From IMG/VR virus record IMGVR_UViG_3300028456_000007: 40,058 bases of DNA; one strand, written 5' to 3'. The position numbers and the translations under genes are program-made. The notes below the pieces were generated by a model, which worked only from the letters and a program-made list of their open reading frames with translations, was not told the DNA's origin and ran no database searches. This document shows, in pieces, positions 1 to 39,682 of the stretch; the first letter of the stretch is position 1, and each line of letters opens with the position of its first letter. Origin of the DNA: a virus. Lineage: Duplodnaviria; Heunggongvirae; Uroviricota; Caudoviricetes.

Positions 1-573
1 ATGTTTTGCGAAGAAAAAGTAGCTCAAATGGCTGCATACCTACTTCTTAAGAGAGGTGGGCGCATGGCATATCTGAAATTGATGAAGCTGCTCTATCTGT
101 CTAACCGCCAGTCGATTTTGAAGCATGGCAGGATGATCGGCGAAGATAGCCTTTACTCTATGAAATTTGGACCAGTCATGTCGAATACGCTGAACTTGAT
201 TCGCGGTAAGGCTGAAGGCATTGGTGACTACTGGTACAACTTGATAGAGACGAACGGGCATAATGTATCGTTGCGTTCAGATCCGAGGGAAATGGATGCA
301 GACGAGGTCTTTGATGAATTGAGTCGTGCAGATATCCGGATTTTAGATGAAATCTATTCTCGGTATGGGCATATGAACCGATTTGATCTCGCAAATATGA
401 CGCATTTAGAAAGCGTTTGTCCAGAGTGGCACGATCCTGGCAATTCTCGTAAGCCTATAGACCTGAAAGAAATGCTGATCAGTGAGGGTAAAAGCGAGGA
501 TGAGGCTAATCGCATAATTGGCAAAATGGAAGAATCTCAGAAACTTAAGGAATTTTCTTTGCAATTATCATGA
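1..573 (+). CDS. Panacea/DUF4065-domain protein (SocA/PanA-like putative antitoxin); possibly 5'-partial at window edge
   Basis: ORF begins at window position 1; segment AYLLLKRGG-RMAYLKLMKLLYLS resembles the conserved N-terminal core of DUF4065/Panacea proteins as recalled; stop overlaps next start (ATGA at 570-573). Confidence 0.5.
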   Translation: MFCEEKVAQMAAYLLLKRGGRMAYLKLMKLLYLSNRQSILKHGRMIGEDSLYSMKFGPVMSNTLNLIRGKAEGIGDYWYNLIETNGHNVSLRSDPREMDADEVFDELSRADIRILDEIYSRYGHMNRFDLANMTHLESVCPEWHDPGNSRKPIDLKEMLISEGKSEDEANRIIGKMEESQKLKEFSLQLS

Positions 574-989
574 CGGATTATCAGCCATACAGGAAAGGAA
601 CTGTGCTTGCCCCAACTGGACCATGCAATCATCTTCATGTGATTTGTAATGATCCTGTTTATTACCCCGTTAACGATTGTTATTGTGTTTTAGTTGTTAA
701 TATTTCTAGTATCAAGGATGGTGTCCCCCACGATCCGTCTTGCGTCTTGAATTCCGGTGATCATCGCTTTATCAAGCATCCAAGTTATGTTGTTTACGCT
801 GAAGCTATAATTTGGCGAGTGGATAACATGGTTAGAAAGCAGCGATCGGGTGAGATTTCTGTTCATGATGATATGCCAGAAGCTACATTCAATAGAATTC
901 TGGACGGTTTTGATATATCTGATGAAGTTACGCCAAAGAACCTTAAATTTAAAAATAAATATTGCGTATCATCTATTGATGATGAGTAA
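570..989 (+). CDS. hypothetical 139-aa protein translationally coupled to the Panacea-domain gene (candidate toxin/effector partner)
   Basis: 4-bp ATGA start/stop overlap with upstream gene; Cys/His-rich; no family recognised. Confidence 0.45.
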   Translation: MTDYQPYRKGTVLAPTGPCNHLHVICNDPVYYPVNDCYCVLVVNISSIKDGVPHDPSCVLNSGDHRFIKHPSYVVYAEAIIWRVDNMVRKQRSGEISVHDDMPEATFNRILDGFDISDEVTPKNLKFKNKYCVSSIDDE

Positions 990-1028: not shown

Positions 1029-1202
1029 ATGGAAGATCAAAAAGCAACCAAGCCACAGCTTAAGTTCGACACAATGAAAGCATTCGCAGGTATGGGTGCT
1101 GCTGTTGAAGTTCTGATGAAGGCTGCTCCTAATGCGTTCACTCACGTTACTGTCTCTGGTAAAGAGCAGCAGGGTAAGCTTCGTCGTCGCAAAGCAGTAT
1201 GA
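1029..1202 (+). CDS. small hypothetical protein (57 aa), below ORF-track length cutoff
   Basis: ATG 1029 preceded by GGAG at 1019-1022; 57 sense codons to TGA 1200-1202; basic C-terminus (KLRRRKAV). Confidence 0.3.
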   Translation: MEDQKATKPQLKFDTMKAFAGMGAAVEVLMKAAPNAFTHVTVSGKEQQGKLRRRKAV

Positions 1203-2885: not shown

Positions 2886-3170
2886 TCATAATTCTGTGCT
2901 GGTGGCAGGAATTAATTTCTGCCAGATAGCTGAAACATATTTTGCCTGATGACGAGCATCAGCCAGGGCGTTGTGCCGTTCGCCATCGAAAGGCATGTCC
3001 ATTTTGGGGTCGAATCCGATGGAACGCCCAAGCGTAACGATCGTGCGTACATCGTGATCATTCCAGTACGCCCATGGGCAGATTTGTCCTGCTCGTTCAT
3101 AAGCTCCGCGTAAAATTACGTTGTCGAAGGTGGCCCCGTTACCCCAAACTTTTAAATATTTCGAAAACAT
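2886..3170 (-). pseudogene. DEDD-type 3'-5' exonuclease, C-terminal fragment only
   Basis: Exo II-like WGNGATFD and Exo III-like HNALADARHQA motifs present but no Exo I region; ORF starts immediately after stop of upstream HD gene. Confidence 0.4.
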
Positions 3171-3707
3171 TCATGCGCATTTGCGTAACTCCGATAACTC
3201 GTTAAAACGTTCCATAAACATCCCGTAGGCATGGCCTGGTGACAGTGGAATAACTTTGAACATCTCTGTTGCCGGGATGCCTTCCAGTACAGGCCAGAAA
3301 GAGCCATCATCAAGCCCGAGATCGCGGCGTTCGGTTGCCAGCATAATAAGATCGGCATATTTCACTGGCGTGCTCATAACAGGAGGTAACCCGTATTTCT
3401 CACGGATTACGGCGTCTATTTTTTCTTCCATCCGTTTATAGTCAGGAAGAAGTCGTTTCAGTGGCGCGGGGATGTCCTGGCAATATGCTTCTGTTGCATC
3501 ATGCATTAACGCTTCAAAAGCAAATTCCTGCGGCACCAGCTGGCTGCAAAGCACCGCATGCTGGGCGACACTGTAGAAGTGTGAAAGATGTCCTGCAAAG
3601 CGACAGATATTTGAAAGGGAAACTGCGATATCGTTAATCACGATGTCGTCTTTATTTATCCTGTCATAATAAAAATGCTTCCCGGAAAAAGTTTTAATAA
3701 ATGACAT
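3171..3707 (-). CDS. HD-domain phosphohydrolase (YfdR-like prophage 5'-nucleotidase family)
   Basis: H...HD motif (FAGH ... MHDATEAY); probable start MSFIKTF at ATG 3707-3705 with GGAGAA SD, giving 178 aa (ORF track start 3734). Confidence 0.6.
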   Translation of the reverse strand: MSFIKTFSGKHFYYDRINKDDIVINDIAVSLSNICRFAGHLSHFYSVAQHAVLCSQLVPQEFAFEALMHDATEAYCQDIPAPLKRLLPDYKRMEEKIDAVIREKYGLPPVMSTPVKYADLIMLATERRDLGLDDGSFWPVLEGIPATEMFKVIPLSPGHAYGMFMERFNELSELRKCA

Positions 3708-3834
3708 TTTGTTCTCCACGTATATGCGCTGCACCGCGCTGAATTCTGGTAAAAGGAAGCCCTCACCATCCGGTGATTATTGAGTTAATTACGTTTCCAT
3801 AAATGCCCCCGCAGAGGCATTTGCAGTAATGAAA

Positions 3835-6519: not shown

Positions 6520-7098
6520 GTGGGTAAAGAACCTGAATGGAAAGTTGATAAACAACCAGCATGGCTGGTGGCAGCAATACGAAGAACGATTGCTGATTTA
6601 CCTCATGGCTATGAGGAAGCAGCAGAAATTCTTGGTTTGTATAAATCTGATGATATCACCCCAGCAAAAGATCAATTGCATAACAGACTGCGTAGCGGTG
6701 GGGATCAAATTTTTCCACTTGAGTGGGCCATGGTTTTACAGGATGCCAGTGGTACCAGGCATGTAACAGATGCAATAGCCCGTCGTAGTAATGGGGTGTT
6801 TGTGCCGCTGGTGGTCATTGATGACATTGACAATGGTGACATTAATCAGCGGCTGATGGAGTCAATAGAATGGATTGGCAAGCATTCCCAGTACTTACGC
6901 AAGGCAACTGCTGATGGAGTTATTGACCAGGCTGAGCGTGAGCAAATCGAAGAGAACAGCTACCAAGTAATGGCGAAGTGGCAGGAGCATTTAACACTGT
7001 TATTTCGTGTTTTTTGTGCGCCGGAAAAGAGTAACGCCCGCGAGTGTGCAGCTCCGGGCGTCGTGGCGTTTTGTGTCTGTGGAGAAACTAACGCATGA
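6520..7098 (+). CDS. hypothetical early-right protein (possibly CII-like regulator)
   Basis: 192-aa ORF directly after cro; family assignment uncertain. Confidence 0.35.
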   Translation: MGKEPEWKVDKQPAWLVAAIRRTIADLPHGYEEAAEILGLYKSDDITPAKDQLHNRLRSGGDQIFPLEWAMVLQDASGTRHVTDAIARRSNGVFVPLVVIDDIDNGDINQRLMESIEWIGKHSQYLRKATADGVIDQAEREQIEENSYQVMAKWQEHLTLLFRVFCAPEKSNARECAAPGVVAFCVCGETNA

Positions 7099-8246
7099 AC
7101 AGTTTAACGGCAAATAACCGTTTGTCGCAACAGCTGGTGGTCAGCGTCGCTGAACACCTGTTGTTACGGCATGAATGCAGATTACCAAATCACCTGGCTG
7201 TAAGTAACCACAGAGAACTTTACCTGACTGTGGGGGGCGAGTTGTGCAGGAACTTAACCGCTGGTTTCGTGACGGAAGAGGGCTTTATGTCCATGTTATT
7301 CGTTGGGAGCCAGAAACACAGCGCGTTATCTATCTTCGCAAAGACTACCCGCATGAGTGCTTTAGTCCTTTGTGGAAATTCAGGCGTGATTTTGTTGAGT
7401 GTGAAGGACCACCAGCACATTGATTCTGCCATTCCGGGACGTTACACTGTTCAGGCACCTTATAAAGCGGGTGCCGGGCGTGGAAACCCGGAATTCACCA
7501 AAGCGCACAACCGCGCTCTTGCGGTTTTTTTGTGTCATGAGCAGCATTACGCCCAAATTATGGTGGGGCGTGCAGGGCCAACTTCGGTTGGGCCGGGTTC
7601 TTTGGTGACCGGTATTTCCACCCCTGTACGTCTCACCACCAATAAGGTCGTGGAAAGCCTTGGTGGTGAGTTATTTAAAATCACCAAAGAGGCTGCCATC
7701 ATGGCTACGATCCCAACCCTCACTCAACCTGAAATTGCCATCGTTGATGGTCAGGCTGTTACTTCATCCCTGGCTGTTGCCAACTTCTTCTCCAAACGTC
7801 ATGACGATGTACTGAAAAAGATCCGCACGCTTGAATGCTCCGCATCATTCACTGCCCGCAATTTTTCGGTGAGTGATTACACCGATTGCACAGGCCGCAA
7901 ACTACCTTGCTATCAAATAACCCGCGACGGCTTTGCGTTTCTTGCTATGGGTTTCACGGGTAAACGTGCTGCCCAGTTCAAAGAGGCATACATCAATGCC
8001 TTTAACCAGATGGAGAAACAGCTTTCAAGGCCCGCTGTACCGAGCGACGTTGCACATAACGCCAGCGTTCTCTGTTCCTACATTTCATCAATTCATCAGG
8101 TCTGGCTGCAGCAGCTTTATCCTATGTTGGCAAAAGCCGAATCTCCGCTGGCTGTTAGCTTATATGACTATATTAATGATGCTTCGGCGCTGGCCTGCCT
8201 CATAAATTTGTCGCTGAACCCTTCAGAGGTAAGGGGGCGCAAATGA
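7095..8246 (+). CDS. Rha-family phage regulatory protein (Rha-like domain in C-terminal half; alternative start ATG 7701)
   Basis: ATGA coupling to upstream gene at 7095; Rha-like segment IAIVDGQAVTSSLAVANFF...YQITRDGFAFLAMGFTGKRA; AAGAGG SD before ATG 7701; no in-frame stop between 7095 and 8246. Confidence 0.5.
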   Translation: MNSLTANNRLSQQLVVSVAEHLLLRHECRLPNHLAVSNHRELYLTVGGELCRNLTAGFVTEEGFMSMLFVGSQKHSALSIFAKTTRMSALVLCGNSGVILLSVKDHQHIDSAIPGRYTVQAPYKAGAGRGNPEFTKAHNRALAVFLCHEQHYAQIMVGRAGPTSVGPGSLVTGISTPVRLTTNKVVESLGGELFKITKEAAIMATIPTLTQPEIAIVDGQAVTSSLAVANFFSKRHDDVLKKIRTLECSASFTARNFSVSDYTDCTGRKLPCYQITRDGFAFLAMGFTGKRAAQFKEAYINAFNQMEKQLSRPAVPSDVAHNASVLCSYISSIHQVWLQQLYPMLAKAESPLAVSLYDYINDASALACLINLSLNPSEVRGRK

Positions 8247-36441: not shown

Positions 36442-37005
36442 ATGATTTACGGGTATGTTCGTGTATCAACAAATCATCAGGATACAGAGTTGCAACGTCT
36501 TGCACTTGAGTCAGCTGGCTGTGAGCGAATTTATGAAGAATATGCCAGTGGCAGAACAGCTAATCGCCCTGTGTTAAAGGAATTAATTACGGTGATGAAA
36601 AGTGGAGATGAGTTGATTGTCTGGAAGTTAGATCGGATAGGGAGAAATGTGCTGCATGCGCTATTGATGTTTCAAAATCTGCACGAAAAAGGTGTTAATT
36701 TTCGGAGTATTACAGATGGCGTAGACCTGAAAACAGCAAGTGGTCGCTATAATTTCCGTAATATTCTTTCTGCTGCGCAGTATGAATCTGATTTGAATAG
36801 CGAGCGAACTTTAGCTGGTTTGGCTATTGCCAGATCCAAAGGCCGGATTGGTGGGCGTAGACCGAAGTTTAGCGACGAGCAGTGGCAACAGATGGGAGCG
36901 CTCATAGCGGCAGGGAAATCACGGCGTTATGTTGCACGTATCTATAACGTTGGGCTATCAACCCTATATAAACGATTTCCTGTTACTGGCATTCAAACGA
37001 AATAA
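36442..37005 (+). CDS. DNA invertase, serine recombinase (Pin/Gin/Hin/Cin family)
   Basis: YGYVRVSTNHQ catalytic Ser motif, resolvase-type N-terminal domain, C-terminal HTH; AGGAGAA SD. Confidence 0.9.
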   Translation: MIYGYVRVSTNHQDTELQRLALESAGCERIYEEYASGRTANRPVLKELITVMKSGDELIVWKLDRIGRNVLHALLMFQNLHEKGVNFRSITDGVDLKTASGRYNFRNILSAAQYESDLNSERTLAGLAIARSKGRIGGRRPKFSDEQWQQMGALIAAGKSRRYVARIYNVGLSTLYKRFPVTGIQTK

Positions 37006-37458: not shown

Positions 37459-38556
37459 TCAAGAGGTCTTATTTCTGCTCCTTTGGAGCTCTTCAAAACG
37501 ATTATGTAAAGATTTCGGATACAGTTCGGTATATACCTGCCATAGCACGTTTAATGAACGATGCCCTGTAACCTGGGCGACTTCCTCAATACTAAAACCA
37601 GCCTCAAATAAGCGACTTGCCCCTTCTCTACGCAAATCATGGTATCGCAGATCTTTAATACCTAATTTGCTTCTTACCCTCTGGAATCCCGCAGTAACAG
37701 AAGTGCTGTTATATGGAAAAATGAATTCTGATTTTTTGGGTTGTCGTTGGACGATATCCCAGGCTTCCCCAAGCAAGGCTACTTTCATATGGTTGCCTTC
37801 CTTTTTACGTGGATCTTTCCTGTCTCTTACGAGTATGGATTTTTGTTCCTGATCGAGATCCTCCCATCGTAATCGGCATACTTCACCGATTCGCATACAT
37901 GACCACACAGAAAATTTGAGGATATCAACGAACGGAATTTTTGAGCATTTATGTGTAGATCGTTGTTGAAGACCTTCAATGAGCATGTCCAGTTCATCAG
38001 ATGCCGGTCTACGATTACGACGATTTGATTTACCAATTAAACCAAGTTTAAGTAGATATGGACGAGCGGCTTTTGCTGGGTTTGATGTGTAATTAATTCC
38101 ATATACAGGTTTGGCAGCATCCAGAACACTGCCAAGATAACTAACATCGTGGCTAACTGTAGCTGGACCTGCACCAGCGTTGTTTCTTAGCCTGCAATGT
38201 TCAATTACGTCATTTTCTGTCAGTTCAGATAGTTTGATCGCGGAGATGTCACTATCCATAAGCAGTTCCAGCACATATCTTTTAGTACGGCCTGCTTTAC
38301 CTCCGGCATTTGGGTCATTTAAATATTTGTGTAGTAAGTCACGGACTGTAAGTCCGTCAACTGCATTTGATGATGGAATGCCATATAGATCTAATTCCAT
38401 CACTTTCTGTGTGCCCCATGTTTTGGCATGAGCATGTTTAGGGAATGTTTTGCTTTCCCTGTAAGTGATAACACCTTTTTCTTTGATAATCACATTACAG
38501 CGATAGCGTGGTGTGCCATCGGATTTTAGTCGTTTCTCTATGTTATAGTACGCCAT
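37459..38556 (-). CDS. int: tyrosine site-specific integrase (dusA-associated type)
   Basis: C-terminal catalytic pattern HDLRREGASRL ... TGHRSLNVLWQVY; adjacent to 5' end of dusA. Confidence 0.9.
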   Translation of the reverse strand: MAYYNIEKRLKSDGTPRYRCNVIIKEKGVITYRESKTFPKHAHAKTWGTQKVMELDLYGIPSSNAVDGLTVRDLLHKYLNDPNAGGKAGRTKRYVLELLMDSDISAIKLSELTENDVIEHCRLRNNAGAGPATVSHDVSYLGSVLDAAKPVYGINYTSNPAKAARPYLLKLGLIGKSNRRNRRPASDELDMLIEGLQQRSTHKCSKIPFVDILKFSVWSCMRIGEVCRLRWEDLDQEQKSILVRDRKDPRKKEGNHMKVALLGEAWDIVQRQPKKSEFIFPYNSTSVTAGFQRVRSKLGIKDLRYHDLRREGASRLFEAGFSIEEVAQVTGHRSLNVLWQVYTELYPKSLHNRFEELQRSRNKTS

Positions 38557-38644: not shown

Positions 38645-39682
38645 ATGCACGATAATCATGAAACACAAAAAATTAATCAAACCAGCGTGATGCCTGAAAA
38701 AACTGGTGTTTACTGGAATTCTCGGTTTAGCATTGCTCCTATGCTCGACTGGACGGACAGACATTGCCGCTATTTCTTGCGTCTGCTTTCCCGCAATACG
38801 TTGCTGTATACCGAAATGGTGACCACAGGGGCGATTATTCACGGTAAAGGTGATTACCTGGCGTACAGTGAAGAAGAACATCCGGTAGCGTTGCAACTCG
38901 GCGGTAGCGATCCGGCGGCGCTGGCACAGTGTGCGAAGCTGGCAGAAGCGCGTGGATATGATGAGATCAACCTGAATGTCGGCTGCCCGTCTGACCGGGT
39001 GCAGAACGGCATGTTTGGTGCGTGTCTGATGGGTAATGCGCAGCTGGTTGCCGACTGCGTGAAAGCGATGCGCGATGTGGTGTCGATTCCAGTGACGGTG
39101 AAAACGCGTATTGGCATCGATGACCAGGACAGCTATGAATTTCTCTGCGATTTCATCAACACCGTTTCCGGCAAAGGCGAGTGTGAGATGTTTATCATCC
39201 ACGCACGTAAAGCCTGGCTTTCGGGGTTAAGCCCGAAAGAAAACCGTGAAATCCCGCCGCTCGATTATCCGCGTGTGTATCAACTGAAGCGTGACTTTCC
39301 GCATCTGACAATGTCGATTAACGGTGGTATCAAGTCGCTGGAAGAGGCCAAAGCACACCTGCAACATATGGATGGCGTGATGGTCGGGCGCGAGGCGTAT
39401 CAGAATCCGGGTATTCTGGCGGCGGTAGACCGGGAGATCTTTGGTTCCTCGGATACCGATGCCGATCCAGTGGCGGTAGTGCGCGCCATGTATCCGTACA
39501 TTGAGCGTGAACTCAGCCAGGGGACGTATCTCGGCCATATTACCCGGCATATGTTGGGCTTGTTCCAGGGTATTCCTGGCGCGCGGCAGTGGCGGCGTTA
39601 TTTAAGTGAAAATGCCCATAAAGCGGGTGCAGACATTAATGTGCTGGAACACGCGCTCAAACTGGTGGCGGATAAGCGTTAA
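38645..39682 (+). CDS. dusA: tRNA-dihydrouridine synthase A
   Basis: 345-aa ORF recognised as DusA from memory of the E. coli protein; TIM-barrel Dus pattern (NLNVGCP ... K-x-R); conserved host neighbour pspG follows. Confidence 0.9.

Follow-up and report, generated by a model that had tools for sequence, protein, structure and literature searches.

The first 989 bp of the window, by which we mean the whole 40,058-nucleotide viral stretch of DNA that was analysed (IMG/VR record IMGVR_UViG_3300028456_000007), contain two overlapping genes, panA and panT, that very probably form a type II PanAT toxin-antitoxin module. In such a module, the Panacea protein PanA would bind and silence the MazF-fold toxin PanT, which would stop translation, probably by cleaving RNA. 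The gene pair is located at the left (attL) end of a prophage that is integrated at dusA and that is contained as a whole in the window. The features that are relevant to this interpretation are the following:

1-573, plus strand: panA (ORF1), encoding a putative antitoxin of 190 aa, in which a stand-alone Panacea/DUF4065 core, lacking an N-terminal domain, is joined to two C-terminal helices
570-573, plus strand: ATGA start/stop overlap, read from the sequence, by which translation of panA and panT is probably coupled
570-989, plus strand: panT (ORF2), encoding a 139-aa putative toxin with a predicted MazF/Kid/CcdB-like fold, assigned to PanT cluster T6
591-605, plus strand: AGGAAAGGAA followed by GTG 603, the alternative panT start used by RefSeq, which gives a 128-aa product and is probably not the true start
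1029-1202, plus strand: ORF of 57 aa (PHROG 2741, function unassigned) that accompanies the pair in E. coli
1341-2375, plus strand: gene for a CoiA-like protein of 344 aa (PF06054, E 7e-10) with a Cys-rich C-terminal half; 37.8% GC
37459-38556, minus strand: tyrosine integrase gene at the right end of the window
38645-39682: intact dusA at the right end of the window, where pspG is also found

Two overlapping and strictly linked genes

The window begins with the ATG of ORF1, and the TGA of ORF1 (571-573) overlaps the ATG of ORF2 (570-572). The ATGA overlap at 570-573 that was described in the first-pass annotation is thus confirmed, and the same applies to two further observations made there, namely the AT-rich nature of the region (43.1% GC in ORF1 and 38.3% in ORF2 versus 51% in the remaining prophage) and the Cys/His-rich composition of the 139-aa ORF (6 Cys and 6 His). 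The majority of the related loci show a panA/panT overlap of either 4 or 1 nt, and overlaps of the same size are given for the cluster T6 pairs in the available part of Dataset S1 of Kurata et al. (2022; PMC8832971).

Both ORFs were compared with their orthologues from Kosakonia and Pluralibacter, which share 82-87% amino acid identity with the E. coli proteins. The synonymous sites turned out to be saturated (pS 0.78-0.82), while the non-synonymous divergence was 0.08-0.11. Since NG86 dN/dS values are unusable with saturated synonymous sites, pN/pS was taken as the measure of selection; it ranged from 0.10 to 0.14 for panA and panT alike. Therefore, as judged from the sequences, panA and panT are both real genes under purifying selection.

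In every E. coli genome that was inspected, RefSeq/PGAP starts panT at GTG 603, resulting in a protein of 128 aa (WP_014640052.1). However, ATG 570 is probably the better start, because the 11 residues before GTG 603 are conserved as protein (the N-terminal M..Y.PYRKGT of the 139-aa PanT is kept in homologues) and because residues 11-16 form strand 1 of the predicted fold. The RefSeq protein would thus be 11 residues short, and the overlap with panA also stands if translation starts at ATG 570.

When species-representative genomes were scanned with the motif of the ORF2 family, 26 loci were recovered. In all of the 26 loci that hold upstream DNA, a PanA homologue is encoded directly upstream of the ORF2 homologue. 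These linked loci extend from Alpha- to Gammaproteobacteria, ranging from Sphingomonas and Aureimonas to Enterobacterales, and the identities of PanA and PanT drop together. The conserved two-gene arrangement expected of Panacea loci, which recurs in two or more species with no more than 100 nt between the genes, was thus present in 26 of 26 cases. The proposal of the first-pass annotation that the genes constitute a toxin-antitoxin pair is therefore well supported by the Panacea match described below, the 4-nt overlap, the strict co-occurrence and the accessory position of the pair.

We considered the 57-aa ORF as a possible third gene of the module but discarded this idea, since Kosakonia and Pluralibacter lack it next to the pair and phage mEp460 carries it by itself. 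As its linkage to the pair is limited to E. coli, the module consists of two genes.

In E. coli strain AR_0089 (NZ_CP032265.1; locus L032, 3574-4800), IS903B splits panT at about codon 50, corresponding to about position 717 of the window, and panA is intact. This prophage is a natural toxin knock-out and, as a single case, it has decayed in the direction expected of a toxin-antitoxin pair. Moreover, the PanT homologue of Proteus (P0017) is deposited in GenBank under three accession numbers from a single series (AYY81064, AYY81154 and AYY82117), so one Proteus genome may contain the module in several identical copies.

Putative antitoxin and toxin

The first-pass annotation had recognised a Panacea/DUF4065 core in ORF1, and an HMM search bore this out. 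ORF1 matches the Pfam family SocA_Panacea (PF13274) with 70.9 bits (gathering cut-off 25.7; E 2.2e-19), and the match spans residues 27-137 of the protein and positions 1-109 of the 113 positions of the profile. In RefSeq, the product is named 'Panacea domain-containing protein' (WP_000458584.1). The GPV signature, which has been described as critical for neutralisation (Kurata et al. 2022, PMC8832971), is present in the sequence F56-G57-P58-V59. Among 40 homologues, there is no variation at G57 and P58, nor at T134, H135, E142 and W143, and V59 shows at least 90% conservation. The AF2 model of PanA is confident across all 190 residues (pLDDT 93.2) and shows the Panacea core, to which two helices are appended C-terminally (residues 155-161 and 166-189); there is no extra N-terminal domain. 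Comparison of PanA with the PDB, both by sequence profile and with Foldseek, did not reveal any solved Panacea structure.

It has been shown that a stand-alone Panacea domain can neutralise a toxin directly (Ernits et al. 2023, PMC10440598). In other PanA proteins, binding is brought about by appended elements, in one case by two C-terminal helices, and the Panacea domain may then serve as a sensor (Ernits et al. 2023, PMC10440598). In the module described here, panA would be translated first, with panT coupled to it via the ATGA overlap, and PanA would neutralise PanT by direct binding, possibly through its own C-terminal helices. The fact that PanA is devoid of a DNA-binding domain counts against this explanation, since the regulation of the operon is left unexplained.

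No significant match to ORF2 was obtained in Pfam, NCBIfam or PADLOC, and its sole database match is PHROG 19071, a family with unassigned function. A word-indexed search with ORF2 returned 62 clusters, all of which are gammaproteobacterial and none of which has a Pfam domain. An exhaustive profile search with the ORF2 family detected at least 2,710 representatives at E <= 0.001, of which 940 match at E <= 1e-10, the family size being counted in representatives of clusters of 50% identity. According to these sequence searches, ORF2 belongs to a large family without a Pfam model.

The structure model of PanT is confident, and its top structural neighbours are MazF, Kid and CcdB according to two methods, the matches to MazF and Kid exceeding the one to CcdB. 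By structure comparison, PanT thus falls within the MazF/Kid/CcdB fold. In contrast, sequence methods show no relationship. When the PDB was searched by sequence, using ORF2 by itself, a profile of 32 sequences or one of 95 sequences, only chance-level matches were obtained. None of 95 members of the PanT family matches PemK_toxin (PF02452), and they do not consistently match any other Pfam family either. Finally, hhalign assigned probabilities of 0.2-0.4% to the comparison of the PanT family profile with E. coli MazF and with a small hand-compiled alignment of five MazF/Kid/EndoA/ChpBK sequences. We therefore classify PanT as a protein with a predicted MazF fold rather than as a member of the Pfam family PemK_toxin, a link that is drawn entirely from structure comparison. 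In the first-pass annotation, the 139-aa ORF could not be placed in any family, which agrees with the results for Pfam, NCBIfam and PADLOC; however, structure comparison and homology place the protein in the MazF/Kid/CcdB fold and in cluster T6, respectively.

In MazF, strands 1 and 2 are connected by a long loop leading to the catalytic residue Arg29. In the PanT model, the corresponding loop has only 2 residues, and the protein possesses an extra C-terminal helix. Among 95 diverse members of the family, H21 is invariant and D55, C58 and H65 are at least 90% conserved. In a manual alignment by strand order, H21 of PanT would take the place of H28/R29 of MazF, and S46/S47 that of T52/T53; the conserved Asp, Cys and His would fall in the long loop behind the strand equivalent to the one ending at T52 of MazF. 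The chemistry of PanT may therefore differ from that of MazF, because the conserved H21/D55/C58/H65 set is not the Arg/Thr catalytic pair of MazF. These non-MazF conserved residues are the sole unusual point of the module. The short loop, the additional helix and the conserved His/Asp/Cys/His also distinguish PanT from the toxins of the MazEF and Kis-Kid (PemIK) systems, to which it has no detectable relationship at the sequence level. Moreover, the antitoxin is a Panacea protein here and not a DNA binder of the AbrB/MazE fold.

Assignment to cluster T6 and alternative modes of action

In 2022, the genomic neighbourhoods of DUF4065/Panacea genes were surveyed, and 88 clusters of partner toxins were defined (Kurata et al. 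2022, PNAS, PMC8832971). Cluster T6, for which at least 57 rows are found in the available part of Dataset S1, was labelled as "EndoA/PemK/MazF-family RNAses" using HHpred; its members are pairs from many Proteobacteria in which the PanA gene comes first and the overlap is -1 or -4 (PMC8832971). The T6 PanT from Pseudomonas moraviensis has been studied experimentally: it is toxic in E. coli and is rescued by its own PanA, the two proteins form a complex in a pull-down, and the toxin specifically inhibits the incorporation of 35S-Met, thus affecting protein synthesis and not the incorporation of thymidine or uridine (PMC8832971). Among the T6 rows in this part of the dataset (at least 57; PMC8832971), no E. 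coli entry was found. Several relatives of the E. coli pair link it to this cluster. The PanT of Pantoea septica LMG 5345 (L008) is 56% identical to ORF2, and the 4-nt overlap of the genes corresponds to the -4 given in the T6 row for this strain. Similarly, the PanT of Chimaeribacter coloradensis 2016-Iso4 (L007), which is listed in T6 as "Yersiniaceae bacterium 2016Iso4", is 55% identical to ORF2, and its 1-nt overlap corresponds to the -1 in the T6 row. Furthermore, a Pseudomonas PanA starting with MIFSEQKVAQ is 42% identical to the PanA of the window, and the 132-aa protein that follows it with a 1-nt overlap is 43% identical to ORF2 (E 1e-32). The ten residues MIFSEQKVAQ are those that were restored to the P. 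moraviensis PanA by Kurata et al. (PMC8832971). On the basis of strain identity, gene arrangement and homology, which we judge to be sufficient, panT belongs to T6, and its relationship to the tested toxin of P. moraviensis is inferred through these relatives.

In both the E. coli and the P. moraviensis system, the Panacea antitoxin stands alone and lacks an N-terminal domain, the antitoxin gene comes first and overlaps the toxin gene by 1-4 nt, and the toxin, about 130-140 aa in length, has a MazF-like fold and no match in CDD or Pfam; the E. coli copy is carried by a prophage, at the attL end next to dusA. By homology to the validated T6 member, free PanT would arrest growth by blocking translation, most probably through cutting RNA. 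For the E. coli pair, we infer toxicity, neutralisation, RNase activity and the binding surface by analogy. The suggestion that the 139-aa ORF may be an undescribed toxin has to be given up, given its MazF/Kid/CcdB fold and its membership in T6, one member of which has been validated experimentally. Thus, the pair does not represent a new kind of system, the T6 toxin type being already catalogued. However, a RefSeq hypothetical protein that had been started 11 codons late is now placed in a defined toxin family, and panAT of E. coli could serve as a convenient native-host system for studying what triggers PanATs and what MazF-fold T6 toxins cleave or modify.

Other explanations for the gene pair can be weighed against this module. 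CcdB, the toxin of the F plasmid system CcdAB, poisons gyrase. PanT might act in a CcdB-like manner by poisoning gyrase or another non-RNA target, or it might attack a different substrate by means of a metal-dependent or Cys/His/Asp chemistry. We regard this as improbable, because the matches to MazF and Kid are the stronger ones and because the T6 homologue blocks translation and leaves thymidine and uridine incorporation unaffected; the antitoxins of the two systems differ, too. It is somewhat more doubtful still that the 139-aa protein is not a toxin and that the linkage reflects another joint function. Indeed, no toxicity in E. coli was seen for 8 of the 25 PanT candidates assayed (PMC8832971), but a validated toxin belongs to the same homologous cluster as PanT, the predicted fold is that of a toxin superfamily, and the two genes are strictly linked and overlap. 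The lowest probability of all is assigned to a role of PanA in proteolysis, namely as an adaptor handing the toxin over to ClpXP instead of acting as a stoichiometric inhibitor, as known from the type VI system SocAB of Caulobacter. SocA is the founding Panacea protein and works via ClpXP, and both modes of action are compatible according to Kurata et al. (PMC8832971). However, although the Panacea domain of the antitoxin is common to both systems, PanA of the window is not a SocA equivalog, its score of 14.4 bits with the NCBIfam model NF047745 lying far below the cut-off of 190, which makes the adaptor role unlikely. In addition, the T6 proteins formed a stable complex in the pull-down, and SocB, whose target is the replication clamp, is not related to PanT (PMC8832971). 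The type II module with a translation-blocking toxin is therefore retained as the preferred explanation.

Prophage setting and possible role of the module

Positions 1-2400 of the window are 99.9% identical to the chromosome of the enterotoxigenic E. coli (ETEC) strain H10407, in which the Panacea gene follows a 105-bp dusA remnant downstream of lexA-dinF-zur. The native upstream DNA of the pair in H10407 (L001, 7750-8000; about 250 bp) contains a promoter-like site, TTGACC-17-TAAACT. The window also carries genes for a terminase, a tail sheath and a CI-like repressor as well as other phage genes. With these phage genes, and with the integrase gene, the intact dusA and pspG at its right end, the window spans a whole prophage integrated at dusA, and panAT lies at the attL end of this prophage. 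In phage Lys8385Vzw, panAT is found 455 bp from the integrase gene; therefore, the order in the circular phage genome is int, attP, panA and panT. The module would thus be an AT-rich accessory cassette that lies beside int-attP when the phage genome is circular. Both genes are transcribed towards the end of an early-left operon on the opposite strand, which comprises a PrtN/Xis-like gene, an exonuclease gene, yfdR and yfdQ.

The 989-bp pair is present in 208 of 5,426 complete E. coli genomes (about 4%), in all cases on the chromosome and in 206 of them at near full length. The carriers include ETEC H10407 and prophages of O103 and O111 Shiga toxin-producing E. coli (STEC). In four further E. 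coli contexts, panAT was invariably found at the dusA side. The gene for the CoiA-like protein is rare: among 565 E. coli genomes with part of the region in common, only 12 possess it, and it is absent from Lys8385Vzw. The protein has no match in PADLOC, PHROG or the PDB. Its gene is a rare accessory insert between panAT and the PrtN/Xis-like gene, and it may be a defence gene.

Two biological roles of the module can be envisaged, both of which we put forward tentatively and on an equal footing. In a lysogen, panAT could act in abortive infection or superinfection defence. An incoming phage would inactivate or titrate PanA, with the Panacea domain as the sensor, and the PanT set free would shut down translation. 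For this role speak the AT-rich composition of the cassette, its transcription against the early-left operon and its position at the int-attP junction, which is typical of accessory genes expressed in lysogens; moreover, a second rare low-GC gene, the one for the CoiA-like nuclease, follows panAT in the window. Panacea has also been proposed as a sensor domain (Ernits et al. 2023, PMC10440598), and the toxSAS/CapRel relatives defend against phages. However, PADLOC-DB v2 yielded no match at E <= 0.1 for PanA, PanT, the 57-aa ORF or the CoiA-like protein, phage-challenge data for a T6 PanAT were not found in the literature, and the location suits stabilisation just as well. The other role is that of an addiction or stabilisation cassette penalising loss of the prophage, or of a selfish toxin-antitoxin pair without benefit for the host. 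In line with this possibility, all E. coli contexts that were inspected have the module at one particular end of a single dusA prophage family, and the module adjoins int in Lys8385Vzw and is exclusively chromosomal in the 208 genomes; in addition, PanATs are located near recombination hot spots (Kurata et al. 2022, PMC8832971). The prophage of AR_0089, however, persists without the toxin. An unlikely though more far-reaching scenario would combine a new chemistry with a defence role: the PanTs of T6 would not be ordinary MazF RNases; their scaffold would be MazF-like, with a loop of 2 residues, but the active site would be a new one made up of His21/Asp55/Cys58/His65, either a metal centre or a Cys/His/Asp centre, and in prophages Panacea would sense phage and free the toxin as an abortive-infection defence.

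Three other parts of the prophage deserve mention. The gene for the Rv2179c-like 3'-5' exonuclease (window 2886-3734, minus strand) encodes the C-terminal half only, which matches positions 98-177 of the 177-position profile, and is directly adjacent to yfdR. H10407 has a full exonuclease gene of 573 bp and, in the interval before yfdR, two more genes that the prophage of the window lacks. This difference shows that a deletion has occurred in the early-left operon of the window prophage. On the plus strand at 7455-7643, matches to the Rfam families isrK (67 bits) and C4 antisense RNA (83.6 bits) were obtained, both of which exceed the gathering scores. They are located in the 5' part of an ORF with an Ash/Rha domain (7095-8246), an arrangement like that of the C4 immunity RNA of the P1/P7 type. 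Finally, at the right end of the prophage, before the integrase gene, a Hin-type resolvase/invertase gene (36442-37005) adjoins a gene for tail-fibre assembly, so this part of the prophage may contain an invertible tail-fibre segment.
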